Positions 11,156-47,426 of a stretch of DNA of 64,000 bases are shown here, piece by piece. The DNA is from Candidatus Dormiibacterota bacterium. GTDB taxonomy: Bacteria; Chloroflexota; Dormibacteria; Aeolococcales; Aeolococcaceae. The notes beneath the pieces were generated by a model. That model did no database searches, was not told where the DNA came from, and saw nothing but the letters and a program-made list of their open reading frames with translations. How positions within the stretch are numbered: position 1 is the stretch's first letter; each line of letters opens with the position of its first letter. The stretch covers positions 73,124-137,123 of the forward strand of contig CAVVJH010000001.1 in assembly GCA_963748505.1 (NCBI GenBank), read 5' to 3'. Made by a program: the position numbers and the translations under genes.

Positions 11156-14149
11156 ATGGAGAGATCAGTGATGTCGGCATACGATCCGCGTCCGCGCCAC
11201 GGCCGCGCCGGGACAGCGCTGCTGGCCTCGCTGGCGGCGGGCGGCATGGTGATCGGTGCGCCGATCCTGCAAGCGCAACCAGCTGCCGCGCAGACCCGCG
11301 TCTCGACCATCCCCGCAGGGTTCAGCGACTGGACGATGCACAACGGCGATCCCCTGCATCACGCGGTGTCGGCCGAGACGATCCTCTCCAACACGACGCA
11401 GTTCAAATTGCACTGGAGCGCCAACACGGGCTCGCTGAGCTTCTCGTCCCCGGCGGTCGCGTTCAACCCGACGCTCAACGAATCGCTCGTGTATGTCGGC
11501 AACCAAGCCGGCGAGTTCACTGCCTACAACGCTGCCACGGGCGGCGTGGTGTGGACGTTTCAGGTGCCCAAAACCGCGGGGCTCTCCAAGGAGATCGAAT
11601 CGTCGCCGGCAGTTTCGGGCAACACCGTCTATTTCGGTGACGGCGACTACCACGAGTACGCCCTCAACGCGACGACGGGAGCGCTGATCTGCACCTCGCC
11701 GTCGATGGGCGGGATCAGTGCGTCGTCACCGGTGATCGGCAACCCGGCCGGCACCGGGGACGTCCTGTACTTCGGTGATTCCGGGGCGAGCGGTGACACC
11801 AGTGACGGCGGCCATCTGTGGGCGATGTACGGCGTGGGTAACAGTGGCGGCGCGGCGTGCGCAATCTATTGGTCCTTCGATGCTTTCGGAAACCCTCCCG
11901 GGAGTCAGACGGGCTCGTCAGGGGTGTACTCGACGCCCGCCTACGGCACCCTCGCGAATGGCTCACCGGTGGTCGTGGTCGGGAGCACGGATCCTGACGA
12001 TGCGATCTACGGATTCAACGCAATCACCGGTGCAGCGCTCTGGCGGTTCCAGGCATTCGTCGGCATCGACGCCGACATCGGATCGCCGCCGACCATTGCT
12101 GCGCCTCACACCATCGGTGCGGTCGGTTCGCAGACCTACAACGACGGCGTGGTGTACGACACGAGCAAGTCGGCGATCCTCTATGCGCTCGACCTCCAGA
12201 CCGGTGCACAGCTCTGGTCGTTCAACATCAAGACGAGCATCGGGCACGGCGGCAACCCCGCGCAATCGGGAGCCGCACTGGTCGGCAATTTCATCTACAT
12301 CGGCTACGGCTCAGGCATGTACTCACTCGACGCAACCACGGGTGCGCTCAACTGGGTGAGTTCGGTCACGACCGGCGTGGTGTCATCGCCGTCGGTGACC
12401 GGTCCGCCGGGCAGCCAGGTGATCGCGGTCGGGGATCTGACCGGGAACGTCGACGTCTTCGATTTGACGACGGGCAACCTGTTGTTCACCTACAGCACCG
12501 GCGCCTACATCTTCGCGTCCGCCGGTATCTCGACAGGACAGTTCTTCATCACGAGCACCACGGGAGACATCTACGCCTTCGGCGCCAGCAGCGGTGTGCC
12601 GACGCCGGCGATCACGTCCGTCACCCCAAACCACGGCGCGGTCGGCGGAAGCGAGGTCGTGAGCATCAACGGGAACCAGTTCAGCGGGAGTGGCTTCACC
12701 ACATCGGACGTGCTGTTCAACGGCATCGACATCCCGTCGACCAATGCCTTCCCGTGTCTGGGTTCGGCCGGGGGTTGCTTCCAGGTGGATACTCCCGCGC
12801 AGATCACCGTGGACACCCCGGTGAGCGCGGCCGGCACGGTCGATGTCAAGGTGGTGACGCCGGGAGGGCCCAGTCCCAGTACCTCGGACGACCAGTACAC
12901 GTTCGTCGCGCCCGGCGCCTATACCGCGCTGACGCCCCTGCGCATCTGTGACACACGCGCCAATTCCGGTGCACCCCAGTGCGCTGGACACACGCTCGCG
13001 GCCGGCGGATCCTTCACGGTGCAGATCACCGGCACGCCGATCCCAACCAACGCGCAGGCCGTCGTCATCAACCTGACCGCCATCAATCACGGGAGCGTCT
13101 CGACCTTCGTCAGCGCCTTCCCGGCGGGTGGCGCCGTTCCTCGGGCATCGAACATCAACCTGGCATCGGGCGCAGTCAACTCGAATCTCGCGTTCGTGCA
13201 GTTGAGCGCCACCGGCAAGATCACGCTGTTCAACTCGCTCGGCAGCGCCGATGTGATCGTCGACGTCCAGGGCTACTTCGCGCCGCCCGGCGCGGCGCCG
13301 GTCCCCGGAACCTTCCACTCGATGCCGCCTCTCCGGATCTGTGACTCGCGGGCCGGCCAGAACACCGAGTGCGCGACGACGAAAAACAGTCCGATCGCTG
13401 CCGGGACGTGGCGGCGGGTCGTCCTCTCTGGTCTGCCGCCAGGCGCCCCTGGTGGCACGCCATCGATTCCGACGACAGGAGCAGCGGCGGCGGCGTTCAA
13501 CCTCACCGCAACCGCCGGCACGGCCTCGACATACCTCGCGGTCACGGCACCCAATGCATCGGACGCCTGCCCGACCTCCGCTCCCCGGTTTTCGAATCTC
13601 AACCCGGCCGCGGGTGGGAGCATCCCGATTCGCGCGATCTCTCCACTCGGCCCGCACCAGGACGTCTGCGTGTTCAACGCCGCCGGAAGCATCAACTTCA
13701 TCATCGATGTGAACGGCTGGTTCGGGAACGGTCATGAGAGCGCTACCGGAGCGCGCTTCTACTCGGTGGCCCCGGCGCGCATCTGCGATACCCGCCAGGG
13801 ATCCGGCACCGAGTGCGACAGCAATCCGCTCACCCCGAACGACACCGAGATCCTGCCGGTTGCCGGCGTGTCGCCGACGCCCGCCGAAGGTGGCGCGGTC
13901 AAGCCGGTTGCGGTGGTCGTGAACCTCACCGGCGTCGCGGGGACGGCTGCAACGGTGCTCGTGCTCTATCCGAGCGACGTGAGCCCCCGGCCGAAGGCAT
14001 CAGACCTCAACCCCAATGCCGGGCAGGTCATCGCCAATCTCGCCATCGTGAGCCTCGCCCAGACTGGAGGGAACAGCGGTGACGTGAACATGTTCAATGC
14101 GGTCGGGACGATCGACGCCATCCTCGACGTCGCGGGCTGGTTCCAGTAG
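11156..14149 (+). CDS. large secreted multidomain protein: signal peptide, PQQ-like beta-propeller, IPT/TIG domain, three tandem ~130-aa repeats
   Basis: Signal peptide ALLASLAAGGMVIGAPILQAQPAAAQ. Propeller blades (VYFGD..YALNATTGAL, LYALDLQTGAQLWSF, MYSLDATTGALNWVS). IPT (ITSVTPNHGAVGGSEVVSINGNQFSG). Repeats begin YTALTPLRICDTR / FHSMPPLRICDSR / FYSVAPARICDTR. Uninterrupted 997-aa ORF. Confidence 0.85.
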   Translation: MERSVMSAYDPRPRHGRAGTALLASLAAGGMVIGAPILQAQPAAAQTRVSTIPAGFSDWTMHNGDPLHHAVSAETILSNTTQFKLHWSANTGSLSFSSPAVAFNPTLNESLVYVGNQAGEFTAYNAATGGVVWTFQVPKTAGLSKEIESSPAVSGNTVYFGDGDYHEYALNATTGALICTSPSMGGISASSPVIGNPAGTGDVLYFGDSGASGDTSDGGHLWAMYGVGNSGGAACAIYWSFDAFGNPPGSQTGSSGVYSTPAYGTLANGSPVVVVGSTDPDDAIYGFNAITGAALWRFQAFVGIDADIGSPPTIAAPHTIGAVGSQTYNDGVVYDTSKSAILYALDLQTGAQLWSFNIKTSIGHGGNPAQSGAALVGNFIYIGYGSGMYSLDATTGALNWVSSVTTGVVSSPSVTGPPGSQVIAVGDLTGNVDVFDLTTGNLLFTYSTGAYIFASAGISTGQFFITSTTGDIYAFGASSGVPTPAITSVTPNHGAVGGSEVVSINGNQFSGSGFTTSDVLFNGIDIPSTNAFPCLGSAGGCFQVDTPAQITVDTPVSAAGTVDVKVVTPGGPSPSTSDDQYTFVAPGAYTALTPLRICDTRANSGAPQCAGHTLAAGGSFTVQITGTPIPTNAQAVVINLTAINHGSVSTFVSAFPAGGAVPRASNINLASGAVNSNLAFVQLSATGKITLFNSLGSADVIVDVQGYFAPPGAAPVPGTFHSMPPLRICDSRAGQNTECATTKNSPIAAGTWRRVVLSGLPPGAPGGTPSIPTTGAAAAAFNLTATAGTASTYLAVTAPNASDACPTSAPRFSNLNPAAGGSIPIRAISPLGPHQDVCVFNAAGSINFIIDVNGWFGNGHESATGARFYSVAPARICDTRQGSGTECDSNPLTPNDTEILPVAGVSPTPAEGGAVKPVAVVVNLTGVAGTAATVLVLYPSDVSPRPKASDLNPNAGQVIANLAIVSLAQTGGNSGDVNMFNAVGTIDAILDVAGWFQ
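12915..14146 (+). repeat. three intragenic tandem domain repeats (~400 nt each) each starting with a P-x-RICD[TS]R motif
   Basis: Repeat starts seen at about 12917, 13321 and 13760. Shared pattern: VxxNLTA...NxNG...IDVxGWF/YF. Confidence 0.6.
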
Positions 14150-14933: not shown

Positions 14934-16140
14934 TCAGGCGGGCGCAGCAGTGCGCGGCGTCGACTCCATGATCGCGAGCAGTTGGACCAGCACGGGGCGC
15001 AGATCTGAGCGGATGCTGTACACGATGTCGGGTTCCTGCCCGGTGGAGACCAGCACGCCGGTCGACTGGAACCGATCCAGCTGGTGGCGGACCTCGAACG
15101 GCGTGAGGTTGCTGCGCTTGGCGAGGTCTTCAAGCTTGGTCGGATGGTCGAGCAGCTGGGTCACGATGCGCAGGCGAGCCGCATCCCCGAGGGCATGCAG
15201 GAGGTCGCCGGTAGCGGTGAGCTCATCGTCGGATCGCGAGACCAGCGAGCGCACGGCCTCGAGCGCGGCGCGCGGCCGCAGCGGGAGACCGTGACCGCTG
15301 ACGTAGCTCGTCTGGAGCAGTACCTCACCCGCGGTGGCACCGGCACTGCGTCGCGCCACGATGACGTAGAACGCGCCCACCACCAGCAGCACGACGACGG
15401 CGTCGACCCAGCCGCTGCCGAACCCAACGCCAAGCAGCCGGCCGAGCGCAAGCAGCCCCGTGATGATGCTCGCCACCACGCCGATGTCCACTCCCGCCGC
15501 GAGCAGCACGCGGACCCAGCGAGGGACACGCACCAGGCCCGCACCTGACGACGACGGCGTTCTGCGCACCGCGAGATAGCACCCCACGCCCATCACGATG
15601 AGGATCGCTCCTTGCACGGCGAGCTTCTGGATCTGGTCGAGGAAGTGCTCGACAGGGACCCCGATGAGGATGCCGAGCGCCACGTAGATCCCGACCCAGA
15701 CCACAGTGGAGGAGACCATCGCCAGGATGAACGATCTGCGCGGCGCCTTCACCGCCCCCGCCACCAGCGTCGTGTAGATGCGCAGCCCGGGAATGAGGCG
15801 GCTCACGGCGATGCCGATCCATCCCGCCGATCGCAGCCGATCCTCGACGCGCTCGAGATTCTTCTGCTGGCGAAGGCGCCGTGCCAGGCCCCGCAGACCG
15901 CGATCACCCACCGCGCGCGCCCAGCTGTAGCCGACCAGCGAGCCGGCGACGCAGGCGATCAGCGCCAATGGGATGAACGCGTACGGGTTGAGTCCCACCC
16001 GATGCGATGAGCAGTCCGGCCACCAGCAACGTGAGCTCCCCGGGGGCAAAGGGCAGCGGAACGCCCGCTTCCTCGGCGAAGAGCAGCGCTGGTAGGAGCG
16101 CCAGGGCGACCGCGCCGTGTAGGCCCTGCAGGAAGTTCAC
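14934..16140 (-). CDS. DedA/SNARE-associated membrane protein fused to a C-terminal ArsR-like winged-helix domain; one apparent frameshift near 16000
   Basis: DedA N-terminus (FLQGLHGAVALALLPALLFAEEAGVPLPFAPGELTLLVAGLLIASG) in ORF 15904..16140. Rest of DedA (VSRLIPGLRIYTTLVAGAVKAP) and the wHTH (ARLRIVTQLLDHPTKLEDLAKRSNLTPFEVRHQLDRFQSTGVL) are in ORF 14934..16049. Confidence 0.7.
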
Positions 16141-16191: not shown

Positions 16192-17401
16192 GTGGCGCCG
16201 TTCTGCAAGAGTTTCGCGGTGCTGGAGACCGATGTCGTGGTGGTCGGAGCAGGTCCGAGCGGCGCCACCGCAGCGCTGCTGCTGGCTCGGGCCGGCCGGC
16301 AGGTGGTGCTCGTCGACCGCGCACGGTTCCCACGCGACAAGGCCTGCGGGGAGGGATTGATGCCTCCGGGAGTGGACGTCCTGCGCCGCCTCGGGCTCTA
16401 CGACGCCGTGCTCGAGACCGGTGCGCGGCCGGTCCACGGAGTGAGGTATCAGCACCCCGGCGGCTTCCCCAAGGCGTACGCGGCGTTCCCGACGCCACCC
16501 GAGGGCGGACCCGCGTGGGCCTTGGGTATCCGGCGGACCTGGTTCGATGCCGCGCTGGTCGACGCGGTGCGGCGGGAAGATCGAGCGACGGTCATCGAAG
16601 GCGCGCGCGTCACCGGCCTCATCCGTTCGGCGTCGGGCCGAGTGTCGGGCGTCGAGACCAGCGGCGGTCCCATCGGCGCGCGGATCGTCATCGGCGCGGA
16701 CGGGCTCCACTCGAAAGTCCGCGCCTGGGCAGGGCTCAACAAGCGGTCACGTCCACAGCGGCGATTCGGTTTAGCCGGACACTGGCGGGTCGACACCACC
16801 GGCCGCGACGCCCTGCTCATCACGCTCGGCGATGGACACGAGTGGTACGAGGCTCCGGTTGGTCCGGCAGGAGCTCCTGGTGTCGGTGCTTGACGGCCGG
16901 TCGCACTCGCGACTCACGGCGCGCACCTATGAGCAGGCTGCGCGGCAGAGCGTTCCGGCCGTGCGGGACGCGGCGTTGGTGTCCCGACCGCTCGGCGGTG
17001 CCCAATTCCATCAACGCAGTCGCGCCGCCGCTGCGGGGCGGGTGTTCCTCGTCGGCGATGCAATCGGCTACGACGATCCGACCACCGGCGACGGCCTCGC
17101 GATTGGGATGCTCCTCGCCGAGCGACTCGCGAAGCACATCGACGCCCTGCTCGGCGGTGCGGGTTCGCCCGGCGTGGCGGCTCGGCACTACCAGGCCGAC
17201 CACGTCTCGCTGGTGCGCGACCGTCGCCGTCTGACCCGACTGGTGCTCGTCCAGGACCGGTCGCAGTTTCTGAGCCGCCGCGCCATCAACAAGGCCGCGC
17301 GGGACCCGCGGACGTTCACCAAGCTGCTGGCCATCAACTGCGGCTATCAGCGATTCCGGGAGCTGTCGCCACGGGACTGGCTGTCGCTCGCGGGGATCTG
17401 A
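16192..17401 (+). CDS. FAD-dependent oxidoreductase, geranylgeranyl-reductase-like family; one apparent frameshift near 16860
   Basis: DVVVVGAGPSGATAALLLARAGRQVVLVD dinucleotide-binding motif; GADGLHSKVR. C-terminal VFLVGDAIGYDDPTTGDGLAIGM lies in ORF 16832..17401. Confidence 0.75.
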
Positions 17402-17964
17402 TGGCTGTGCCGCCCTCGACGCGGGATAAACCGAGGCACCCCCTGGAAGGCCTCGCGGTATCCGGGAATCGCCTCGAGGAGCCGTTCCTCCGCGCGGATG
17501 CGCGGCACGAGCACCGCAGCGTTGGCCACGGACAGGAGGGCCGCCTCGGGGACCGCACCGACTGCGATGGGCAGGCAGGCAAACTCCAGCGCGACGGCGA
17601 CATAGTTGGGATGGCGGATGTATCGGTACGGACCGCCGGTTTCGATGTGCACTCCCGGCCGGACGTGCGCTGTGACGTTCCAGTCGGCGCCGAGGGTGCG
17701 GATCACCCAGAGCCGCAGTCCGGCTGAGGCTGCGAGACCCAGGAGCGCTGCGGTCCGCACCGGTCTGGGAACCTGCCGCCCCGGGCGGGGCCAGGCGCTC
17801 GTCGCGAAGAGCGCGAGGTGGGCGGCAACCATCGCCGGATAGGTCCGGGGTGATGCCTGCGCACCTGGTCCGCTGCGGGAGCGATTCCGGGCCGAGATCC
17901 GGAGTTCGACGAGGCGCTGGGCGCCGCTCACGAGCACCAGGCCCATCCGAGCCCGAGCGCTCAT
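17347..17964 (-). CDS. isoprenylcysteine carboxyl methyltransferase (ICMT)-family membrane methyltransferase
   Basis: IETGGPYRYIRHPNYVAVALEF motif. ATGA start/stop overlap with the upstream type III PKS gene. Confidence 0.75.
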   Translation of the reverse strand: MSARARMGLVLVSGAQRLVELRISARNRSRSGPGAQASPRTYPAMVAAHLALFATSAWPRPGRQVPRPVRTAALLGLAASAGLRLWVIRTLGADWNVTAHVRPGVHIETGGPYRYIRHPNYVAVALEFACLPIAVGAVPEAALLSVANAAVLVPRIRAEERLLEAIPGYREAFQGVPRFIPRRGRHSHQIPASDSQSRGDSSRNR

Positions 17965-19067
17965 GCCGTCCAGAGCAGCTCGAGGAGCTCGATCGTCAGT
18001 CCGGGGCCGAAGGCCGCCGCCAGACCTCGGCCGGAGGGTTCCGGGAGGTGGCGCGAGAGCTCGTCAAGCACGAACAGGATTGCCGCCGAGGAGGTGTTGC
18101 CGTACTGGCGTAACACGGTGCGGGTGGCGGCAGTCTGCGGAGCATCCAGCTCGAGGCACCGCACCACCGCATCCACGATCGCCTGGCCGCCCGGGTGGAC
18201 GGCCACCGCGTCCAGCTCGCGAGCATCGCCGATGAACGCGGTGACGAGCTGGGGGAGGTTGAGCTCCAGGAGCCGCGGAAGCTGCCGCGACACCACCACG
18301 CGAAACCCGTCGTCCGCGCGCTCGAAGCCAAGTGCGTCGGTGCTGGCGGCGAGGACCAGCTCCGAGGTGCGGCCGATACCGATCCGGCCGGATGCCGCGT
18401 CACCGCGCAACACCGCCGCGCCGGCGCCGTCGCCGAACACCAGCACGCTCAGGAGGTTGTCGGCTGAGGTGTCCTCCGGGCGAAAGGTGAGCGACGGCAC
18501 CTCGACGGCCACCACCAGGGCCAACTCGCCGGGATGTGATCGCACCCAGTCCGCAGCCGAGCTGAGCGACGCGGCGCCGCCCGCGCAACCGAAGTTCATG
18601 AACGGCATCCGCCGGATGTCGCGCCTGAGCCCGAGGTGGTTGATGAGATGCACGTCGATACCCGGGAGGACGAAACCGGTGCAGGAGGCGACGACGACCA
18701 ATCCGATGTCCTTGGTCGCGATGCCTGACGCGGTCAGGGCGCGCTCCGCGGCGAGCATCGCCAGGGGCATGGCTTCCTCGGCATAGCGGACGGCCTGCTC
18801 GCCGGGCGTCAGCGGCAGGATCGCCTCCTCGATGGGCCGCACCAGAAACCGCTGGCTGTTGGACAGCTCGTCGGCGAAGAGGCCGACCCGCCGCTCCAGG
18901 CGGGGCCAGAGCTGCGTGATCAGACGGAGCACCTCGTCACCGCCGGCACGATGCTGAGGCACGGCCGTCCCCAGCCCGTGGATCGTCACCGGTACCACCA
19001 CCGCCTCCCGCTCACGAGGAAGGGGCTCGGGCAGCGCCGCAGTGCGGATCGCCGCCTCAACAACCAT
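17961..19067 (-). CDS. type III polyketide synthase (chalcone/stilbene synthase family)
   Basis: Catalytic Cys in FMNFGCAGGAASL, His in VHPGGQAIVDAV, Asn in YGNTSSAAILFVLDE; 368 aa. Confidence 0.9.
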   Translation of the reverse strand: MVVEAAIRTAALPEPLPREREAVVVPVTIHGLGTAVPQHRAGGDEVLRLITQLWPRLERRVGLFADELSNSQRFLVRPIEEAILPLTPGEQAVRYAEEAMPLAMLAAERALTASGIATKDIGLVVVASCTGFVLPGIDVHLINHLGLRRDIRRMPFMNFGCAGGAASLSSAADWVRSHPGELALVVAVEVPSLTFRPEDTSADNLLSVLVFGDGAGAAVLRGDAASGRIGIGRTSELVLAASTDALGFERADDGFRVVVSRQLPRLLELNLPQLVTAFIGDARELDAVAVHPGGQAIVDAVVRCLELDAPQTAATRTVLRQYGNTSSAAILFVLDELSRHLPEPSGRGLAAAFGPGLTIELLELLWTA

Positions 19068-19166
19068 GCGCGGCCATCATGACACTGACGATCCGAACGG
19101 GAGTACCGATGTTTCTGGCGATGCGTGGAATAAGTGCTGGGGTTACAGGATTCCTCGTCCGGGCGG

Positions 19167-19943
19167 CTATTCCGGGGTCACGTATGCCGCCGTGAGTCCG
19201 CCGTCGACCAGGAATGTCGCGCCGTTCACATACGACGACTTGTCGCTCGCAAGGAAGAGCGCCGCATTGGCGATCTCGCGCGCCGTGGCCAGGCGGCCCA
19301 TCGGCAGGTGAATCCGTCGCCGCTCATAGGCAGCAGGATTATCGGAGAAAAGCCGCATCAACAATGGGGTTTCGACCGGTCCGGGACACAGCGCATTCAC
19401 ACGAACGCCCTGCCGCGCGAACTGGACGGCGAGCTCGCGACTCATCGACAGCACTGCCCCTTTGGACGCCGTGTACGCGATCTGTGAGGTGGCTGCGCCC
19501 ACCAATGCCACGAACGACGCGACGTTGATCACCGAGCCCGAATCGCGTTCCAGCAGATGGGGAATGCCGTATTTGCAGCACAGGAACACGCCGCGCGCGT
19601 TGACAGCCTGCACGCGATCCCACGCGTCGGCTTCGGTGATGAGGATCGAGTTGTCATCGGGCGGCATGATGCCCGCGTTGTTGTAGAGAATGTCGACACC
19701 GCCGTAGCGTTCGGCGGATTGTGCGTAGAGCGCTCGCACGCTTTCGGCGTCACTCACGTCGACCTCGATGAAGGCCGCTTCACGGCAGGCGGCGGCAGTC
19801 TGCTCGCCGGCTTCGCGACCGACGTCGGCCACGACCACGGAAGCACCTTCGGCGGAAAAGAGGATCGCTGCCTCGCGACCGATGCCGCCGCCGGCACCGG
19901 TGATCACCGCTACCTTGCCATCGAGCCGCCCCACTTCTGTCAA
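19167..19943 (-). CDS. SDR family oxidoreductase
   Basis: VAVITGAGGGIGREAA; NVASFVALVG...YTASKGAV. Confidence 0.9.
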   Translation of the reverse strand: MTEVGRLDGKVAVITGAGGGIGREAAILFSAEGASVVVADVGREAGEQTAAACREAAFIEVDVSDAESVRALYAQSAERYGGVDILYNNAGIMPPDDNSILITEADAWDRVQAVNARGVFLCCKYGIPHLLERDSGSVINVASFVALVGAATSQIAYTASKGAVLSMSRELAVQFARQGVRVNALCPGPVETPLLMRLFSDNPAAYERRRIHLPMGRLATAREIANAALFLASDKSSYVNGATFLVDGGLTAAYVTPE

Positions 19944-21292
19944 CCCTCCGTCGTGATGAACACGTTCTTGACCTCTGAGTAGCCGTCGAGCGCATTCATG
20001 CCGAGCTCGCGTCCGAAGCCAGACTGTTTGAACCCGCCGAACGGCGTCGACACCCGCACCGACGAATTGCTGTTGATCGATAGCACTCCGGTGTCGAGGG
20101 CACGCGCAACGCGCAGCGCGCGGGCACCATTGGTTGTCCAGATCGACCCTGACAATCCATAGGGCGTGTCATTGGCGATGCGGACCGCGTCCGCCTCATC
20201 GGTGAACGGAATGATCGCGGCGACCGGCCCGAAGACCTCGTCGCGCGCGATGCGATCGGAATTGGTCGCCTCGACCAGCGTGCACGGATACCAGAACCCG
20301 GGACCCTCCGGGATCGCTCCGCGAAAGAGCGGCTCACCTTCGACAAACGACGCCACCGTCTTGCGATGCGCCGCGGACACGAGCGGGCCCATCTCCGTCG
20401 ATGGATCCTCGGGATCGCCAACCCTGAGCGCGCCCGTGGCAGCGATCATCAGCGACACGAAGTGGTCATATGCCTCGCGCTGCACCAGAATCCGCGAGCG
20501 TGCGCAGCAATCCTGTCCGGCGTTGCCGAAGACCGCGTAGGGTGCCGCCGCGGCGGCTCGCTCCAGGTCGGCATCGGCGAAGATGACGTTCGCCGACTTG
20601 CCGCCCAGCTCGAGCGTCACGCGCTTGATGGTTTCCGCCGCACCGCGCATGACGCCGATACCGACCTCGGTCGATCCGGTGAACCCGATCTTCGCGACAT
20701 CGGGATGATGGATCAGCCGCTCCCCGACGATGCGACCGGGACCGACGATGACATTGAAGACACCTTCGGGAATACCGGCTTCCAGCGCGAGCTCGGCCAG
20801 ACGGATGGCCGACATAGGCGTGAGCTCGGCAGGTTTCAGCACGACGGTGTTGCCGCACGCGAGCGCGGGTCCGACTTTCCAGCTCGCGATATTGAGCGGG
20901 AAATTCCAGGGAACGATCAGCCCAACGACGCCCAGCGGCTCGCGGAAGGTCATGTCGATGCCGCCCGCGACTGGAATCGTCTGGCCGAAATGCTTATCCA
21001 CCGCGCCGGCGTAGTAGTGGAAGACCTCGGCGACCATGCCGACCTCCCCACGCGAGTCGGCGATCGGCTTGCCGACGTTGCGGGTCTCCAGCAGCGCGAG
21101 CTCCTCACGGTGGTCTTCGACGAGTTCGGCGAGCCGGCGCAGCAGACGCGCCCGATCCGAGGGCGCGACCGCGCGCCAGGCAGGGAACGCCGCTTTCGCC
21201 GCGGCAACCGCCCGGTCGGTTTCCTCAACGCCCGCCTGTTCCAGTTCGGCCACCGGCTGCTCGGTGGCCGGGTTCACCAAGCGCAGCGTCAT
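19940..21292 (-). CDS. NAD(P)-dependent aldehyde dehydrogenase
   Basis: ELGGKSANVIF, catalytic region GQDCCARSRILV, FGGFKQSGFGRE. Start taken at MTLRLVNP; the alternative at 21325 would overlap the GS-like gene by 37 nt. Confidence 0.9.
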   Translation of the reverse strand: MTLRLVNPATEQPVAELEQAGVEETDRAVAAAKAAFPAWRAVAPSDRARLLRRLAELVEDHREELALLETRNVGKPIADSRGEVGMVAEVFHYYAGAVDKHFGQTIPVAGGIDMTFREPLGVVGLIVPWNFPLNIASWKVGPALACGNTVVLKPAELTPMSAIRLAELALEAGIPEGVFNVIVGPGRIVGERLIHHPDVAKIGFTGSTEVGIGVMRGAAETIKRVTLELGGKSANVIFADADLERAAAAAPYAVFGNAGQDCCARSRILVQREAYDHFVSLMIAATGALRVGDPEDPSTEMGPLVSAAHRKTVASFVEGEPLFRGAIPEGPGFWYPCTLVEATNSDRIARDEVFGPVAAIIPFTDEADAVRIANDTPYGLSGSIWTTNGARALRVARALDTGVLSINSNSSVRVSTPFGGFKQSGFGRELGMNALDGYSEVKNVFITTEG

Positions 21293-22626
21293 CCGCGTTC
21301 GTAGAAGCGTTCGCGCTCGTAGCAAGTCACGGCGCGATCGAAGAGGCTCTGCTCGGTCCGTGCGTAGTTCAGGTAGTGGTCGACGACGTCGTCACCAAAT
21401 GCCGAGCGCGCGAACGTTCCACGCTCCAGCGCCGTGATCGCCTCGCTGAGCGTGTGCGGAAAGCGCTCCACATCGGACTCGTAGGCATTGCCCTCGAATG
21501 CGGGGCCGAGCTCGAGCTTGCGCTCGATGCCGTCGAGTCCGGCCGCCAGCAGTGCGGCGAACGCGAGGTACGGATTGGCATCTGCACCCGGGATGCGGCA
21601 CTCGACGCGGAGCGCATTCCCGTGACCGACCACACGGAACCCGCACGTCCGGTTGTCGTACCCCCACGCCAGCGTCGTCGGCGCCCAGCTGCCGGCTGCG
21701 TATCGCTTGTAGGAGTTGATATTCGGCGCCAGGAAGACCGCCAGCTCAGCCGAATGTGCGATCTGGCCGGCGACGTACTGATGGAAGAGGGGAGACTCGC
21801 CTGCGAAGACGCTGTTCTTGTCCTTCCAAAGGCTCGAATGGATGTGGCAGGAGCTGCCGATCCAGGTGTGATCGGGCTTGGCCATGAACGTGACCGAGCA
21901 TCCATGCTGGTGCGCGAGCTCCTTGATCCCATTCTTGTAGATGACGTGGTTGTCGGCCATGGTCACGGCATCGCTGTAGCGGAAGTTGATTTCCTGCTGG
22001 CCTGGCCAGGCCTCGCCTTTGGAGTTCTCCACCTTGATGCCCGCCGCCTGCATGCCATTGCGCACCGCGCGGATGAAGGGCTCGTCGTAGCTGGTCGCGA
22101 GGATGTGGTAGTCGAGGATGTACGGGACCGACGGGGTCAGACCGCGGTAGTGCTTCTCGTGCGCCTCCGCGAACGTCTCCTTGAGAAGATAGAACTCGAG
22201 CTCGGAACCGAACATCGGCTCGAATCCCAGCGCGCGCGAGCGCTCGACCTGCGCCTTGAGCACTTGCCGGGGTGACGGGCGCACCGGCGTCTTGTCGTTC
22301 CAGGCGACGTCGCAGAGCACGAGCGCTGTGCCCTCGAGCCAGGGGATTCGGCGCAGGGTCGCGAAGTCCGGCACCATGGAGAAATCCCCGTATCCACGCG
22401 CCCAACTGGCCATCTCGTAGCCGGGCACCGGGTCCATCTCCATCTCGAGCGCAAGCAGGTAGTTGCAGCCCTCGATGGGGTTGTTCGCCTCCGTCTCCTC
22501 GACGAAGAAGTGCGCCTCCATGCGCTTCCCCATCAAGCGCCCCTGCATGTCCGTGAAGGCGACGACGACCGTATCGATCTCGCCGGAATCGACCAGCGCG
22601 CTGAGTTCCTTAACCGTGAGCATCGT
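21289..22626 (-). CDS. glutamine synthetase family protein (gamma-glutamyl-amine synthetase, GlnA3/PuuA-like)
   Basis: GS catalytic-domain motifs (KPDHTWIGSSCHIHSSLW, NINSYKRY, GYDNRTCGFRV). Start MLTVKEL; its ATG overlaps the TGA of the upstream hydrolase gene. Confidence 0.9.
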   Translation of the reverse strand, partial: TMLTVKELSALVDSGEIDTVVVAFTDMQGRLMGKRMEAHFFVEETEANNPIEGCNYLLALEMEMDPVPGYEMASWARGYGDFSMVPDFATLRRIPWLEGTALVLCDVAWNDKTPVRPSPRQVLKAQVERSRALGFEPMFGSELEFYLLKETFAEAHEKHYRGLTPSVPYILDYHILATSYDEPFIRAVRNGMQAAGIKVENSKGEAWPGQQEINFRYSDAVTMADNHVIYKNGIKELAHQHGCSVTFMAKPDHTWIGSSCHIHSSLWKDKNSVFAGESPLFHQYVAGQIAHSAELAVFLAPNINSYKRYAAGSWAPTTLAWGYDNRTCGFRVVGHGNALRVECRIPGADANPYLAFAALLAAGLDGIERKLELGPAFEGNAYESDVERFPHTLSEAITALERGTFARSAFGDDVVDHYLNYARTEQSLFDRAVTCYERERFYERG

Positions 22627-23369
22627 CAGGCACCCTCGTGTTTGGTATCGGTTGCAACCGCACCGTTGTGCTCGTGTTCGGCGACCCGGTCGACAAAACG
22701 GGTGAAGAGCGCCATCGCCCAGCCCTCCTGGTTGAGCAGTTCCTCGGGATGGCACTGCACCGCGACGATCATCCCATCACCCGATTCGATGCCCTCGACA
22801 ATGCCGTCGGAGCTGTGCGCTGTCGCGTGGAGCCCAGGCGCGACGTCCTTGACCGACTGGTGATGCAGGCTGTTCACCATCACGCGGTCGCCGGGCGTGA
22901 CCATGGACAGCTCCGAACCGGGCACCACATCGATGGAATGTGCGAGCAGATCGCGCGGGTGTCCGTGCATGTCGTGCCCGTCGATGTGCTGCACCAGTGA
23001 ACCGCCGAGCGCAACGTTGATCACCTGCTGCCCGCGACAGATCCCGAAGACCGGCATCCCGCTATCGACGGCTGCGCGCACGAGTGCGATCTCCGTGAGG
23101 TCGAGCGGCGGGTCGACATTGGGCGTCTCCTCCTGGCGCGCTTCACCATAGGCAGGCGGATCGACATCCCATCCACCCGGAACCAGGAGCCCGTCGATGG
23201 CCCCCATCAGCGCGGTCGCGGCAGCGGCCGGCAGTCCGTCCGGAGCGGGGCTGAGCGTCACAGGCTCACCGCCGGCAGCCTCAACCGCGCGGAGATAGGG
23301 CGCGTAGTACGCGGGGCCACGCAGTGGACTGCAGGTCACACCGATCCTGGGCTTGGGCATGTGATGCAT
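22626..23369 (-). CDS. class I glutamine amidotransferase-like gamma-glutamyl hydrolase (PuuD-like)
   Basis: GICRGQQVINVALGGSL (Cys nucleophile) and HHQS region. Start at MHHMPKPRIGVT; the Ser-rich upstream extension is rejected. Confidence 0.85.
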   Translation of the reverse strand: MHHMPKPRIGVTCSPLRGPAYYAPYLRAVEAAGGEPVTLSPAPDGLPAAAATALMGAIDGLLVPGGWDVDPPAYGEARQEETPNVDPPLDLTEIALVRAAVDSGMPVFGICRGQQVINVALGGSLVQHIDGHDMHGHPRDLLAHSIDVVPGSELSMVTPGDRVMVNSLHHQSVKDVAPGLHATAHSSDGIVEGIESGDGMIVAVQCHPEELLNQEGWAMALFTRFVDRVAEHEHNGAVATDTKHEGA

Positions 23370-23430
23370 CCTTCGCGTGCTCGCGGCGCCGTCGCCGCGA
23401 GCACGCGTGGTAACTACTGAATTGAGCCTA

Positions 23431-24948
23431 TCAGCCTGCGAATCCGGCCTCGATCGACGCCAGCTCCTCGGGCGTGCCTTGCACCTTCGGCCCCTTGAAC
23501 CAACGGTGTGCGGACACCACCCACCAGATGGTCGTGCCCCCGAGCACCACCAGGAACGCCACCGGTGTGTAGTTGAAGTTGGTCCCGGAGACAGGGAAGG
23601 CGGTGGGGAGCAGGAACAGGATGCTGATGAAGACGATCCAGACGACGGCGATGATGCCGATCGGCTTGCTCCACCTGCCGAGATGCCACGGTCCGCGCTG
23701 GAAGCTGTCACCGGCGCGGAGCCGGAGGAATATCGGGATGCCGTATGCGACGTAGAGGCCGATGACCGCGATCGAGATCACTGCCGCATACGCATACGCG
23801 TTGAACAGATAGGGCAGGAAGAGGATGAACGCACCGACCACCGCCAGCCAGATCGAGTTGGTTGGGGTGCGCGTGCGCTTGTTGATCTTGCTCCAGAGCT
23901 GGTGGCCGGGGACCGCGCCGTCACGTGAGAAGGCGTAGATCATTCGCGAGTTCGCGGTGACCGATGACATGCCGCAGTAGAACTGCGCGCCAATTGCGAT
24001 CAGCAGCAGGAACTGGCCGGTCGCACCACCAGCGGCGTCGATGAAGATCTGCGCCGCAGGGACGACTGCGGTCGATTCCGCCGTGTAGTTCTGAATCGCC
24101 GAGGTGACGCCGATGAGGAGGATCCAGCCTGCGATCAGCGAGACGACGATCGACAGCACGATGCCGCGCGGACCGGCGGTCGCTGCGTTCCTGGTCTCCT
24201 CAGTCATGTGCGCTGACGCGTCGTAGCCGGTGAAGGTGTACTGCGCGAGCAGCAACCCGATCAGGAAGACATAGACGATGTTCCCAGGGAAGGTTGCTCC
24301 GGTGCCGTTGTTGAAGTGCGTGAAGATGAAGCTGATCGACTGGTGGTGCTTGGGCACGATCAGCAGAACGCCGACGATGACGACGACGCCGATGATGTGC
24401 CACCACACCGAGATGTCGTTGAGCAGCGCGACAATCCGGATCCCGAACGTGTTGAGCAGCCCGTGCAGGATCAGCGCGACCGCGAACACGAGGAGCACGT
24501 GCGGCGGATCGTTGGGATAGCCGAACCAGTTGTTCATGAACGCCGTGGCGAACAGTGCGAGGCCACCGTCGATGCCGGCGGTGACCGCCACCTGCCCGAC
24601 CAGGTTGAACCAGCCGGTGAACCAGCTCCAGGCTGCGGCGTTCTTCCCGCCGAGCTTTGCCGACCAGTAGTAGAGGCCACCGGCGGTTGGGTAGCTCGAG
24701 CAGACCTCGGCCATCGCCAGGCCGACGATCGTGACCATGATGCCGACCACCGGCCAGCCGATGTTCATGTCGATCGGGCCACCGTTGAACATCGCAACCC
24801 CGTACGCGGTGAGACATCCGGAAAGGATCGAGATGATGGTGAACGACACCGCGAAGTTGGAGAAGCCCCCCATCCTGCGCAGCAGTTCCTGGGCATAGCC
24901 CAGCTTGTGCAGGGTTTCGGTATCGCTATCCATAGGCTGGACGGTCAT
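23431..24948 (-). CDS. APC-superfamily amino acid/polyamine permease
   Basis: 12-TM protein with AYGVAMFNGGPIDMN... and GFSNFAVSFTIISILSG. Start at MTVQPMD. Uninterrupted. Confidence 0.85.
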   Translation of the reverse strand: MTVQPMDSDTETLHKLGYAQELLRRMGGFSNFAVSFTIISILSGCLTAYGVAMFNGGPIDMNIGWPVVGIMVTIVGLAMAEVCSSYPTAGGLYYWSAKLGGKNAAAWSWFTGWFNLVGQVAVTAGIDGGLALFATAFMNNWFGYPNDPPHVLLVFAVALILHGLLNTFGIRIVALLNDISVWWHIIGVVVIVGVLLIVPKHHQSISFIFTHFNNGTGATFPGNIVYVFLIGLLLAQYTFTGYDASAHMTEETRNAATAGPRGIVLSIVVSLIAGWILLIGVTSAIQNYTAESTAVVPAAQIFIDAAGGATGQFLLLIAIGAQFYCGMSSVTANSRMIYAFSRDGAVPGHQLWSKINKRTRTPTNSIWLAVVGAFILFLPYLFNAYAYAAVISIAVIGLYVAYGIPIFLRLRAGDSFQRGPWHLGRWSKPIGIIAVVWIVFISILFLLPTAFPVSGTNFNYTPVAFLVVLGGTTIWWVVSAHRWFKGPKVQGTPEELASIEAGFAG

Positions 24949-25064
24949 CGGCTCATCTCCCCATGCGGTCCGGTTGGTGCGCGCACAGTAGCAGCGCCCC
25001 TGCACGAGCGTCAACAAATTTATCGGGTGGACCCGATCGCGTTCAAACTGTAAGAATCCTTTCG

Positions 25065-25931
25065 ATGCCTGAGTTCCTCGTCGGCGAGTTGGTCCGGCAG
25101 CGGATGGGGGCGCTCAGCGCGTCAGAGCGCCGGCTCGCGCAAGTGCTCCTTGCGTTCTATCCCGTGGCCGGACTCGAGAGCCTGACCCGATTCGCGGAGC
25201 GAGCGGGCGTCAGCCCGGCGACCGTCACCCGGTTCATCACGAAACTGGGCCTGCGCGGCTATCCGGAGTTCCAGGACTCCCTGCGCGAGGAGCTGCAGGC
25301 GCGCCTCAGCTCACCGGTTGCCCGCTACGAGCTGACGCCGCCCGACGGCGCGAGCGACTCGGGCCTGCAGGATGCCTTCGTCACCTTCGAACACAGCCTT
25401 CGAGCCAGCCGCGACCTGCTGTCGGAGCACGATTTCGACGCGGTGGTCGAGCTGCTGGCGGATCCGCGCCGTCGAGTCCTGTCGCTGGGCGGTCGCCTGA
25501 GCTCGTTCCTCGCGCGCTACCTCGCGAGCCAGCTGCACCTCATTCGCGCGGGTGTCGAACTCATCGACCCGGAGCGCAGCAATCCCGCGGATCACCTTGT
25601 CGACCTGGGGCGCCGCGACATCCTGGTGGTGTTCGACTACCGCCGCTATCAGAGCGACACGATCACCAGTGCCAAGGTCGCAGCGGGGCGGGGGAGCACG
25701 GTGGTGCTGGTGACCGACCCGTGGCTGTCGCCGGCGGCTGCGTCAGCGCGCTACGTCCTGGTGACCGGCGTGCAGGCGACGGTTGCGCCATTTGACTCGA
25801 TGGTCTCGGCGGTGGCGCTCACCGAGGCGCTGATTGCCGGCGTGCTTGCGAGGCTTGGTGAGACGGCGCACGCTCGTATGCGACGCATGGACGAGCTTCG
25901 GGGTGGCATCGTCTACGGCGATGGTCCGTGA
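25065..25931 (+). CDS. MurR/RpiR family transcriptional regulator (HTH + SIS domain)
   Basis: N-terminal HTH (RFAERAGVSPATVTRFITKLGLRGYPEF), C-terminal SIS (RRRVLSLGGRLSSFLARYLA). Divergent from the Puu-like operon. Confidence 0.8.
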   Translation: MPEFLVGELVRQRMGALSASERRLAQVLLAFYPVAGLESLTRFAERAGVSPATVTRFITKLGLRGYPEFQDSLREELQARLSSPVARYELTPPDGASDSGLQDAFVTFEHSLRASRDLLSEHDFDAVVELLADPRRRVLSLGGRLSSFLARYLASQLHLIRAGVELIDPERSNPADHLVDLGRRDILVVFDYRRYQSDTITSAKVAAGRGSTVVLVTDPWLSPAAASARYVLVTGVQATVAPFDSMVSAVALTEALIAGVLARLGETAHARMRRMDELRGGIVYGDGP

Positions 25932-31648: not shown

Positions 31649-32807
31649 GTGGACAACAGGGGTCTGGTCACCGGCGATCATCGTCATCGTCCTGCTCATC
31701 GTGGTCGCCATCCTCATCGGTGGCGCGGTCCGCGTGGTCCCGCAGGGATTCGCCGGCGTGGTCACGCGTTTCGGTCGATTCCGGCGGGAATCCCAAGCCG
31801 GTCTGACGATCATCACGCCGTTCATCGACAAGCTGCTCCGGGTCGACATGCGCGAGACGCCGCGCACCGGCGACCGGCAGGACGTGATCACCCGCGACAA
31901 CGTCGCGGTCGCGGTGAACGCGACGATCTTCAGCCAGGTCATCGAGCCGCGCGCCGCGCTGTTCAACGTGTCGGACTACCTCGTCGCCATCGACCAGCAG
32001 GCCCGCACCACGCTGCGTAATGCCTTCGGCAACGTCAGCCTCGACGAGGCGCTCTCGTCCCGCGAGCAGATCAACGCCGCGATGCAGCAGCAGATGGAGC
32101 AGGTCACCGACAAGTGGGGCATCCGCATCAACCGGATCGAGATCGTCGACATCTCGCCGCCGGTGCAGATCCTCCAGGCGATGGCCCTGCAGAAGCAGGC
32201 CGACCAGGAGAAGCGCGCGCGCATCCTGCAGTCGGAAGGTCAGCAGCAGTCGGCGGTGAACATCGCTGACGGTAACCGGCAGGCCGCAATCAAGCAGGCA
32301 GAGGGCGAGCGGCAGGCCGCCATCCTTCGAGCAGAAGGCAACCGGCAGGCTGCGATCCTCGAAGCAGAAGGCCGCGCTCAGGCGATCTCGACCGTGTACG
32401 GATCGATCAAGGCCGCGCAGCCGGATCCGACCCTGGTCGCGATCCTCCAGCTCGACACCTTGACGAAGTTCGCGGAAAGCCCGAACGCCAAGCTGGTGGT
32501 CCCCGCCGAGACTTCCGGGCTGCTCGGCGCTGCGCAGGTGCTGCGCAGCGTGCTTGGTGACGCGCCCGGGCTCGAGCCGCCGACCGTCGTCACCGTGCCC
32601 GTCGACCAGCTGAGCGGAGCCTCGCCGGTGGCCGGGCAGAGCTCGCTTTTCGGCGCCGACCCGAGCGTTCCGGACGGAGCCGCCGCGAACTCTGCGCCAC
32701 GCGCCGCTGGCGACGCGCATGCGTCCGCGCACCTTCGACGAGTTCGTCGGTCAGCACCGTGCCATCGGGGCCGGCACGGTGCTTCGCCGCGCGGTCGACG
32801 CAGGTGA
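31649..32807 (+). CDS. SPFH/band-7 (stomatin-like) protein; apparent frameshift just after the GTG start; 3' end uncertain (overlaps rarA by 89 nt as drawn)
   Basis: AAGGGAGG RBS 9 nt before the GTG at 31649. TM helix [17 protein letters not shown] then [18 protein letters not shown]...[17 protein letters not shown]... plus coiled-coil ([20 protein letters not shown]) in the 31194..32807 frame. Confidence 0.65.
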
Positions 32808-34009
32808 GGTTCCCTCGATGATCCTCTGGGGTCCGCCGGGGAGCGGAAAGACCACGCTCGCGGCGCTGATCGCGCGGCGCGACCAGCGCGACATTCGAAG
32901 CCGTCAGCGCCGACCAGCGCCGGCGTCGCCGACCTGCGCAAGGTCGTCGAGCGCGCGCGACGAGCGCCTGCGCGACGGGGACGGAGGACGGTCCTCTTCA
33001 TCGACGAGATCCATCGCTTCAACAAGACCCAGCAGGACGCGGTGCTCCCGCACGTCGAGAACGGGACGGTGACGCTGCTCGGCGCCACCACCGAGAACCC
33101 GTCGTTCGAGGTCAACGCGGCGCTGCTGTCGCGGAGCCGCGTGATCCGCCTGGAGGCGCTCGGAGCCGGAGGATCTGCGCAACCTCATCGAGCGGGCGCT
33201 GACCGATGCCGAGCGCGGGCTCGGCGCGCAGCACGTGGCGGTCGACGCCGGAGGCGATCGACCGGCTGGTCGACTCTCTGCGGCGGTGACGCGCGGATCG
33301 CGCTCAACTCCCTGGAGCTCGCCGTGCAGGCGGCGCGCGAAGGATGCGTCGGGGGTCGTCCGCGTGACGGTCGCCGACATCGAAGGCGCGCTGCAGAACC
33401 CGGCGCTGCTCTACGACCGCGCCGGCGACCAGCATTACTGGCTGGTCTCCGCCTTCATCAAGTCGCTGCGCGGCAGCGATCCGGACGCCGCGGTGTACTG
33501 GCTGGCGCGCATGCTGGAGGCGGGCGAGGATCCGCTGTTCGTCGCGCGCCGCATGGTCATTCTCGCAGCCGAGGACGTGGGCCTCGCCGACCCGCACGCG
33601 CTGGGCGTCGCCGTCGCCGCGCAGCAGGCGGCGCACTTCGTCGGCATGCCCGAGGGATTCCTGCCGCTCGCCGAGGCGGCGCTGTATCTCGCGGCGGCGC
33701 CGAAGAGCAACAGCGTGCTGCGCGCCTATGTCGCCGCGTCGGCGGACGTGGCGGAGACGCTGCATCAGCCGGTGCCGCTCCACCTGCGCAACGCGGTGAC
33801 CGGCCTGGGTCGCGCGATGGGCTATGGCAGCGGCTATCGATACGCGCACGACCATGAAGGCGGAGTGGTCGAGCAGCAGCATCTGCCCGAGTCGCTTCGC
33901 TGGTCGCCAGTACTACGACCCATCGGACCATGGAGCCGAGCGCGAGGTCACCGAGCGCCTGCGAGGCGCATCCGAGAGACGCTGGCAGCGGCGCGAATCC
34001 GAGTCTTAA
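32719..34009 (+). pseudogene. rarA: replication-associated recombination protein A (RarA/MgsA AAA+ ATPase), at least 4 apparent frameshifts
   Basis: [48 protein letters not shown] (Walker A). Sensor region [33 protein letters not shown] (ORF 33042..). MgsA_C region [43 protein letters not shown] (ORF 33235..). Tail AGRQYYDPSDHGAEREV (ORF 33824..34009). Confidence 0.65.
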
Positions 34010-34248
34010 GACGATTGGCCTAGCGGCGCCGGGATGCCGCCCGGGCTGACCATCATCGCGACGGGAATTCACTTCTTTGAAACGCAAGTCCCCCTGATAG
34101 GCGGGCGGGCGCCGACCCAGTTCAGTGGTTTACCCTCGCGGGCTCCCCCTCCCCGCGGCACCGGGTGTATCGCGGTTCTGCTGGGTCGGTGCCACCGCCG
34201 ACTTCTCTCTCCAGAGTTAGAAATATTCAGTTAGGCTGGGCTACGACC

Positions 34249-34894
34249 GTGGAAGTTCAACCCTACCCCAATCCCATTCGAGTGCTCATCGTTGATGATC
34301 ACCCATTGGTGCGGCGAGGGCTGACCTCACTCCTGAACGGGACCACCGACATCAAGGTGGTCGGCGCGGCGTCGGACGGCGAGGAGGCCGTCGCGTACGC
34401 GGTCGAGGAGCATCCCGACATCGTCCTCATGGATATCTCGATGCCGGGGATGAACGGGTTCGAGGCGCTGCGCACGGATGCTCAAGGCGGTGGCCGGGAC
34501 CAAGGTCGTAATGCTCACGTCGTACTCCGAGCACGACATGGTGGTCGAGGCCATCGACAACGGCGCGGTCGGCTTCCTGCTCAAGGACACCGAGCCGCAG
34601 GAACTCCTCAACGGCATTCGCTCGGCCGCCAAGGGCGACACGCCGCTCTCGCCCAAGGCCGCGAAGGAATTGCTCCGCGATCGCATCAAGCGGCGGCCGC
34701 TCGACGACCTGACTCAGCGCGAGCTCGACGTGCTTACGCTGGTCGGGCGAGGGATGAGCAACAAGCAGATCGCGTGGCGTCTGGGGATCAGCGAAAAGAC
34801 GGTCAAGGCGCATCTGGGATCGGTCTTCGACCGCCTCGGCGTTGAGGATCGCGTCCAGGCGGCACTGTGGGCGCAGCGCCACGGGATCATCTAG
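34249..34894 (+). CDS. NarL/FixJ (LuxR-type) response regulator, orphan; one apparent frameshift near 34480
   Basis: Receiver domain VLIVDDHPLVRRGLTSLL...DIVLMDISMPGMNGFEAL (GTG start at 34249). LuxR HTH in ORF 34478..34894 (LTQRELDVLTLVGRGMSNKQIAWRLGISEKTVKAH). No histidine kinase gene adjacent. Confidence 0.7.
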
Positions 34895-45893: not shown

Positions 45894-46110
45894 CCGACCA
45901 CCCCCAGCATGCTGGTCGATATCCGCACAGACGGCAGCATTCGCATAGGCATTTCATGACCCCCAGTTCCGCGGGTTTCCGACCTCGGCCGCTCACTCTG
46001 CGGCACGACCCCGGTCTTGCCGCAAGCCCCCCACTGGGGTATAAGTTAGAAGTGGAAGGGAGTTCCCCTGGTGCCGTCAGGCAGATGGGTGCGGACTCCC
46101 AGCGAGAGCG

Positions 46111-47400: not shown

Positions 47401-47426
47401 CGATGCGCGCTCCTTTCAGAAAGTGG

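Follow-up and report, generated by a model that had tools for sequence, protein, structure and literature searches.

A candidate type III polyketide synthase module conserved among Dormibacterota

A 64,000-nucleotide stretch of a Candidatus Dormiibacterota genome (assembly GCA_963748505.1, contig CAVVJH010000001.1, positions 73,124 to 137,123; this whole stretch is called the window in the following) carries a type III polyketide synthase (PKS) gene, a gene for a membrane methyltransferase and, converging on them, a gene for a flavoprotein with an apparent frameshift. Do these three genes belong together, what might they produce, and is the third of them intact? A preliminary description of the DNA had likened the trio to srsABC of Streptomyces and to the mycobacterial type III PKS locus for polyketide quinones. 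Our comparisons suggest that the trio is probably a compact, vertically conserved biosynthetic module of Dormibacterota, of the srs/pkq/bps kind. The earlier assignment is thus partly supported: as judged from sequence comparison it appears right in kind, but over-specific as to lineage, gene order and product.

Gene order and its conservation

The PKS gene (17961-19067, reverse strand) encodes 368 amino acids with the Pfam domains Chal_sti_synt_N and Chal_sti_synt_C, and its start codon is backed by full-length homologues. It is followed by the gene of an ICMT-family integral-membrane methyltransferase of 205 amino acids (17347-17964, reverse strand; Pfam ICMT, PF04140), whose start codon overlaps the PKS stop codon in the sequence ATGA (17961-17964, reverse strand). 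The flavoprotein, which resembles geranylgeranyl reductases (GGR), is encoded as a whole at 16192-17401 on the forward strand, in two open reading frame (ORF) pieces at 16192-16893 and 16832-17401. The ORFs of methyltransferase and flavoprotein are convergent and share their 3'-ends over 55 nt, both stop codons counted (17347-17401). The three protein families, which had been named in the preliminary description, agree with our Pfam and NCBIfam scans; likewise the ATGA coupling was seen again, and the convergent overlap, previously given as about 55 nt, measures exactly 55 nt.

For the synteny analysis one genome per GTDB species was scanned, which resulted in 71 Dormibacterota-type loci, and the window proteins were compared with these loci by tblastn. 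The order of PKS, methyltransferase and convergent flavoprotein was found in 64 Dormibacterota species-level loci, with PKS identities of 53-89%. Recurrence in 64 independent species-level loci argues that the arrangement is not due to chance. The nearest relatives of the PKS, up to 87-89% identical, all derive from Candidatus Dormibacterota metagenome-assembled genomes (MAGs) and from soil and peat metagenomes. The host is thus no actinomycete, and the likeness to actinomycete clusters is one of analogy. The pairing of methyltransferase and oxidoreductase, on whose conservation the earlier assignment had been made to depend, is kept in these 64 loci. Of the flanking genes, those for a glutamine-synthetase-like (GS-like) protein, an aldehyde dehydrogenase and a short-chain dehydrogenase/reductase (SDR) upstream and for a DedA-ArsR fusion downstream are common only to relatives of at least ~70% identity. 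No further conserved neighbour was found when the ORFs of five seed loci, distant ones included, were searched against all loci. Since only these three genes recur, the trio itself is regarded as the module.

Both overlaps are widespread, the convergent one with a length of 55-58 nt in 46 of the 64 orthologous loci and of 38 nt in 7; it is absent in 5. The overlap of PKS stop and methyltransferase start is kept as well: ~35 loci have ATG, GTG or TTG directly at the 4-nt overlap, and in the ~24 loci with CTG at this position an in-frame ATG, GTG or TTG is located 3-9 nt upstream, inside the PKS gene. The start codon would shift to this upstream triplet in the CTG loci, and the overlap is therefore retained. 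It was also observed that the alternative start is often created by the conserved codon of PKS Trp366 (xxG TGG). The ATGA junction of the two genes is predicted to mediate translational coupling.

The 55-nt overlap probably has a different character. In this region the third codon positions coincide on both strands (both at 1 mod 3), and of all antisense phases this one has the fewest stop codons in GC-rich genomes. The core of the methyltransferase extends to about residue 180 (...VPRFIP); beyond it follows a low-complexity tail, which mirrors in antisense the conserved C-terminus of the flavoprotein, ...SPRDWLSLAGI. Because the antisense frame is poor in stop codons, the overlap is probably a tolerated read-on of the methyltransferase ORF, conserved but passive, and not a designed feature. 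Given the overlap of the convergent ORFs, the two transcripts have to overlap as well, unless they end within coding sequence. A consensus scan for terminators yielded two sites versus 0.7 expected, including a weak terminator-like hairpin at 17295-17311 (reverse strand), 3' of the methyltransferase stop codon and inside the flavoprotein coding region. This weak match is not taken as evidence of function.

A deeper-branching clade (L066 and L068-L070 of the locus set, seen for instance at L066:912-3038 on the reverse strand; PKS identity 45-47%, ~75% GC) has kept PKS and ICMT, and no flavoprotein was detected within 8 kb in these loci. Upstream of the PKS this clade carries a divergently transcribed gene for an AMP-binding enzyme with an ACAS_N domain, and electron-transfer-flavoprotein domains were observed downstream of PKS and ICMT in L070. 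Some MAGs of the clade are labelled Micrarchaeia or Verrucomicrobiia, which is probably a binning or labelling problem.

The three enzymes, their relatives and the possible product

The PKS matches the Pfam models Chal_sti_synt_N (77.7 bits, 1.2e-21) and Chal_sti_synt_C (71.6 bits, 9.5e-20) at a cut-off of 27. The Cys-His-Asn triad already recognized in the preliminary description could be assigned to C161, H291 and N324 by alignment to PKS11 and THNS, the catalytic cysteine being marked by the C138S chain of PKS11 (4jat). None of the three residues varies among the 27 homologues compared. The same holds true for C129 in an SCTGF motif, which is the equivalent of THNS Cys106 and not the catalytic cysteine.

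The lineage of the enzyme was analyzed in a neighbour-joining (NJ) tree (343 columns, 100 bootstraps), in which PKS11 and srsA-like enzymes of Streptomyces represented the lineage in place of canonical SrsA and PKS10. The core Dormibacterota enzymes formed a clade with 100% support. PKS11 and the Streptomyces srsA-like enzymes grouped with 100%, or 83% when Sphingomonas and Rhizobium were added, and THNS grouped with a Streptomyces homologue with 100%. Such a phylogeny had been suggested earlier as a check on the assignment, and its outcome is divided: the Dormibacterota PKS does not cluster with THNS/RppA, but neither does it group with the PKS11/srsA-like clade, and it is provisionally placed outside the latter. 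Membership in the THNS/RppA family found no support, in view of the position outside the THNS clade, the absence of equivalents to THNS Cys168 and Cys171, which are Pro and Thr in our enzyme, and a Phe at the position of Tyr224.

The methyltransferase scored 68.7 bits against Pfam ICMT (cut-off 24; 5.9e-19). It has 4-5 hydrophobic segments, an RHPxY motif at residue 117 and an EExxL motif at residue 159, and its sole PDB match is the archaeal ICMT 4a2n. A true prenylcysteine methyltransferase was dismissed as a candidate, the NCBIfam equivalog model for protein-S-isoprenylcysteine methyltransferase giving 33 where 160 are needed. Each of the three proteins was also searched against 72,556 plasmid records. 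Best matches of the methyltransferase were ICMT genes directly downstream of type III PKS genes in two Streptomyces plasmids (41.5% and 40.5% identity). Pairwise BLASTP gave 41.7% identity to the ICMT of a Streptomyces cluster, locus L078 (plasmid of Streptomyces sp. NBC_00184), and an ICMT adjoining a PKS in Sphingomonas is 40.7% identical.

Both pieces of the flavoprotein match Pfam FAD_binding_3. The N-terminal part (16192-16866, forward strand; 8e-21) contains a GxGxxG FAD-binding fold with the motif FPRDKACGEGLMP, and its possible starts are GTG at 16192 or GTG at 16219. The C-terminal part (16867-17401, forward strand) covers profile positions 231-329 and carries the motif GDAIGYDDPTTGDG in addition to the conserved C-terminus. 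The best NCBIfam match is GG-red-SF (TIGR02032), with 124 bits over profile positions 2-289 for the protein reconstructed across the frameshift at a cut-off of 158.8. Motifs of the GGR type, KxCGxG and GDAxG, are present, and many orthologues are labelled 'menaquinone-9 beta-reductase' by JGI. Neither a true geranylgeranyl reductase nor MenJ was accepted, both scores being below cut-off (124 versus 158.8 for GG-red-SF and 86 versus 700 for MenJ). A flavin-dependent halogenase was likewise rejected: halogenases are the best PDB matches (8zop, CmlS), yet the WxWxIP motif is missing (HEWYEAP versus GWVWMIP). With the FAD monooxygenase of cluster L078 the flavoprotein shares 35.9% identity in pairwise BLASTP, a comparison in which this monooxygenase stands in for S. 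griseus SrsC, and the motifs DKACGEG(L/I)MP and GDAxGYxDxxTGxG are common to both. GG-red-SF is also the best NCBIfam match of this monooxygenase (110 bits, below 158.8). In the plasmid records, flavoprotein matches adjacent to type III PKS genes were found in Paludisphaera (31%, 86% of length) and Streptomyces NBC_00184 (36%).

How does this set of enzymes compare with known clusters? The srsB gene of Streptomyces is described as coding for an ICMT-type methyltransferase and srsC for a monooxygenase (PMC6669644), and pkqABC, the pks10 operon of M. smegmatis, and srsABC are described as leading to alkylresorcinol-derived methylated quinones (PMC9927152, PMC5916927) and as co-directional operons (PMC9927152). 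Gene content, namely type III PKS, ICMT-type methyltransferase and FAD flavoprotein, is the same in our locus. The order differs, since the third gene is co-directional there, whereas the Dormibacterota flavoprotein gene is convergent and overlapping in a conserved manner. Of the architecture proposed in the preliminary description, the gene content therefore stood and the gene order did not.

Cluster L078, in which a divergent UbiA gene is followed by type III PKS, ICMT and FAD-dependent monooxygenase genes, represents the agqABCD type of Actinoplanes; of the annotated clusters found, it came closest to ours in both tailoring enzymes. It differs in the adjacent UbiA and further S-adenosylmethionine (SAM) methyltransferases, in a monooxygenase of 337 instead of 402 amino acids, and in its PKS, to which the Dormibacterota enzyme, from a separate clade and with Phe or Tyr instead of Trp at the position discussed below, is ~32% identical. 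No UbiA-like gene was found in the window by tblastn with the UbiA of this Streptomyces cluster or by Pfam scans of ~35 window ORFs, in line with the absence of an adjacent prenyltransferase gene reported before. In Sphingomonas a PKS gene is directly followed by an ICMT-family methyltransferase gene, as here, without a flavoprotein; the PKSs of Sphingomonas and Rhizobium carry Trp, unlike the Dormibacterota PKS. The bpsAB genes of Bacillus subtilis also consist of a PKS gene followed by an ICMT-family methyltransferase gene, without a flavoprotein gene, and lead to alkylpyrone methyl ethers.

Trios of type III PKS, methyltransferase and FAD-oxidoreductase are also known from Planctomycetota (mtr-fdo-t3pks) and cyanobacteria (hidABC) (PMC10896814, PMC8086630). 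These clusters for hierridins and alkylresorcinols resemble ours in combining a type III PKS and a methyltransferase with a GGR-like FAD oxidoreductase, and the motifs KxCGxx and GDAAGY are common to Gimesia fdo, the Paludisphaera oxidoreductase and the Dormibacterota flavoprotein. They differ in that their methyltransferase, a soluble SAM enzyme, belongs to class I and not to the ICMT family, and in the co-directional order mtr-fdo-pks. The planctomycetal PKS is ~25-30% identical to the Dormibacterota PKS, a value derived from fragmentary high-scoring segment pairs with supplement sequences of PMC10896814 damaged by optical character recognition. A Deinococcus type III PKS cluster contains a UbiH-type hydroxylase and a class I methyltransferase, unlike our locus. 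Since the methyltransferases of Deinococcus, Planctomycetota and cyanobacteria belong to class I, the tailoring pair found here is specifically of the srs/agq/bps (ICMT) type.

Based on these homologies a general scheme of three steps can be proposed. The type III PKS, by means of C161, H291 and N324, would most likely be primed by a fatty-acyl thioester and use malonyl-CoA to extend this starter, giving a phenolic or pyrone lipid. This lipid would be O-methylated in the membrane by the ICMT-family methyltransferase, as suggested by its homology to methyltransferases of type III PKS clusters in Streptomyces and Sphingomonas. The GGR-like flavoprotein may then hydroxylate the ring to give a hydroquinone or quinone, in analogy to the FAD monooxygenase of the srs/agq type in Streptomyces; ring hydroxylation is the role that has been proposed for SrsC and the pkq oxidoreductase. 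The general course of fatty-acyl-primed lipid synthesis, O-methylation and hydroxylation to the (hydro)quinone is judged to be probable; within it we infer which starter is used, whether the ring is a resorcinol or a pyrone, and that the flavoprotein acts as a hydroxylase.

A number of observations weigh against this scheme and against a close relationship to srs and pkq. The PKS is at most ~35% identical to every non-Dormibacterota PKS compared, and in the NJ tree its clade lies outside a group with 72% support that holds the PKS11/srsA-like enzymes, Sphingomonas, Rhizobium and THNS. The likeness to srsABC, pkqABC and bpsAB was judged from stand-ins, chiefly the Streptomyces cluster L078, in place of the canonical SrsA/B/C, Pkq, PKS10 and BpsA/B sequences. 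Phe248 occupies the position of the resorcinol-determining Trp; of the 27 sequences of the clade, 16 have Phe and 11 have Tyr at this site. PKS11 (W230) and the enzymes of Streptomyces, Sphingomonas, Rhizobium and Deinococcus have Trp there, THNS Tyr and a Pks18-like enzyme Leu. The corresponding W281 of ArsB was reported to determine resorcinol formation and to be conserved in FtpA, SrsA, PKS10 and PKS11 (PMC5916927). With Phe or Tyr in place of Trp, a resorcinol or quinone product is therefore something that we infer and not a result. Furthermore, no acyl-activating enzyme (acyl-CoA ligase) or acyl carrier protein (ACP) was found near the trio by tblastn and by the Pfam scans of ~35 window ORFs, and the flavoprotein is, by sequence alone, not distinguishable from a reductase.

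Two other products have to be considered. An enzyme of the THNS/RppA kind could be primed by malonyl-CoA and form a small aromatic compound of the naphthalene or phloroglucinol type, which would be O-methylated and oxidized to a methoxy-(naphtho)quinone. THNS takes a malonyl starter, which leaves room for such a non-lipid aromatic product. THNS (1u0m) is the best PDB sequence match of our PKS (4e-44, 154.5 bits), ahead of Pks11 (9e-41) and a Pks18-like chain (4e-38), but its margin over Pks11 is small (154 versus 144 bits). The SCTGF motif, whose Cys occupies the THNS C106 position in every one of the 27 sequences, is common to THNS and the Dormibacterota clade, as is an aromatic side chain at the site of Tyr224 (Phe or Tyr in the clade), whereas the two cysteines 168 and 171 have no counterpart here. 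In addition, the best NCBIfam match is DpgA, also malonyl-primed, though far below cut-off, and the missing gene for fatty acyl activation would fit this reading as well. Against it stand the NJ tree, which sets the clade outside the fully supported pair of THNS and its Streptomyces homologue, and the obligatory partner, an integral-membrane methyltransferase of the ICMT type, the homologues of which were found to adjoin type III PKS genes of the srs/bps type. In the THNS-like Streptomyces locus L074, by contrast, the neighbouring genes are of the P450, NTF2 and aldo/keto-reductase families. On balance a malonyl-primed aromatic product appears improbable.

Alternatively, PKS and methyltransferase might form a two-gene core as in bpsAB and yield alkylpyrone methyl ethers, with the flavoprotein acting as a GGR/MenJ-type reductase on the side chain or a quinone. 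The loss of the resorcinol-determining Trp would be compatible with this, and both Sphingomonas and the deeper-branching clade (L066-L070) have pairs of PKS and ICMT that lack a flavoprotein. The geranylgeranyl reductase family as best NCBIfam match and the JGI label on many orthologues point in the same direction, yet the GG-red-SF and MenJ scores both remain below their cut-offs, the closest relative linked to a type III PKS is annotated and placed as an SrsC-type monooxygenase, and no isoprenoid genes are located nearby. Moreover, the PKS has kept a large aromatic side chain, Phe or Tyr, at the site at which a smaller residue, Leu, is found in the Pks18-like alkylpyrone synthase. We assign this possibility the same low likelihood as the malonyl-primed product, and the lipid scheme with O-methylation and ring hydroxylation remains the preferred one.

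The flavoprotein frameshift

Is the third enzyme of the module encoded intact? One apparent frameshift near 16860 had been noted before. By MAFFT alignment with three orthologues (L001-L003) it was placed at ~16866 and identified as a 1-nt insertion, an extra G in CCGG (site 16862-16868, forward strand; GGTCCGGCAGG). Removal of one G results in a protein of 402 amino acids that is colinear with its homologues, which comprise 388-412 amino acids and are all intact. Both halves of the flavoprotein lie in one frame in 62 of the 64 orthologous loci; as to the two exceptions, one locus (L054) ends before the N-terminal half and the other (L071) has frame changes in several genes. A programmed frameshift was rejected, as neither the 62 loci nor any of the database homologues show the shift.

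Two other genes of the window are also broken. The gene of a rarA/mgsA-like AAA+ ATPase (32719-34023, forward strand) is spread over three frames, with the P-loop in 32719-33072, positions 17-39 of AAA_assoc_2 in 33042-33857, and positions 38-81 of AAA_assoc_2 together with MgsA_C in 33235-34023, which amounts to at least two frameshifts. A class-III aminotransferase gene (34891-36177, reverse strand) is split over two frames, and tblastn with the intact paralogue at 46111-47415 located the shift at 35402-35428. Because at least three further frameshifts thus occur in two other genes of the window, one of them a housekeeping gene, an assembly indel is the likelier cause. In addition, a Logan contig of 2,270 bp from run ERR11571141 with an identical PKS spans 16865-19134 and ends exactly at the indel, as would be expected if reads disagree there.

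A genuine pseudogene in this strain, with a pathway that stops at the methylated polyketide, would be the alternative. The insertion is present in the deposited assembly, NCBI and ENA annotate only a fragment of 233 amino acids, and six neighbouring genes are frame-intact in comparison with L001. The lack of an intact, 100%-identical flavoprotein in the database also speaks against an artefact. On the other hand, the single 1-nt insertion is the sole lesion, and the sequences on both sides of the break are 81-87% identical to intact orthologues, which together with the additional frameshifts, that in the rarA-like housekeeping gene included, and the read heterogeneity suggested by the Logan contig argues against decay. 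A pseudogene is accordingly regarded as unlikely, if less so than the two alternative products. We consider it quite likely, with higher confidence than for the pathway, that the frameshift is an assembly artefact and that the organism would encode an intact enzyme.

Neighbouring genes and implications

Searches around the cluster yielded no regulatory elements: no riboswitch or regulatory RNA was detected near it with Rfam, which found two distant tRNAs only, and a promoter scan near the cluster gave nothing. On the flavoprotein side, a fusion of an N-terminal DedA/VTT membrane domain with a C-terminal ArsR/SmtB-type helix-turn-helix domain is encoded at 14934-16049 (reverse strand), divergent from the flavoprotein gene across an intergenic region of 142 nt. 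This fusion may be a membrane-tethered regulator. Beyond it, an ORF of 997 amino acids (11156-14149, forward strand) appeared by eye to encode a secreted protein with beta-propeller-type repeats.

Upstream of the PKS gene lie the SDR (19167-19943), aldehyde dehydrogenase (19940-21325) and GS-like (21289-22755) genes, and farther upstream an ORF at 22626-23711, by eye a class I amidotransferase or gamma-glutamyl hydrolase, followed by an amino-acid-permease-like ORF (23431-25017) and an RpiR/SIS regulator (24936-25931). In its predicted gene content this block (19167-25931) is similar to clusters for the catabolism of putrescine or gamma-glutamyl compounds. At 44418-45953 (reverse strand), 27 kb from the trio and outside the module, the window encodes another aromatic-ring hydroxylase, of the classical kind with FAD_binding_3 and Rng_hyd_C domains; a MerR/cupin regulator and aminotransferases adjoin it.

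Peat, permafrost and Antarctic soils are rich in Dormibacterota, and to our knowledge none of them has been cultured. In our literature search no publication on type III PKS clusters or quinones in this group came up. The kind of cluster is known, and to judge from the comparisons the main interest lies in its conservation across an uncultured phylum and in the PKS as an odd member. In mycobacteria and Streptomyces the analogous products are described as alternative carriers of electrons when oxygen is limiting or when spores are formed (PMC9927152, PMC5916927). It is tempting, if rather speculative, to regard the trio as a phylum-wide, vertically inherited core function that provides a membrane polyketide quinone or phenolic lipid, either as an alternative electron carrier in respiration or as a dormancy or envelope lipid; the PKS would then belong to an uncharacterised lineage, marked by Phe or Tyr at the Trp site and by the THNS-like Cys, and might form its ring in another way than SrsA, PKS10 and ArsB do.

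For genome annotation our data imply that the frameshift in the flavoprotein gene is not to be taken as pathway decay. The PKS lineage, with Phe or Tyr throughout, could serve as a natural test case for the dependence of resorcinol formation on Trp. Finally, the module, present in at least 64 species-level genomes and amenable to cloning, offers a concrete lead to a quinone or membrane lipid of the Dormibacterota.

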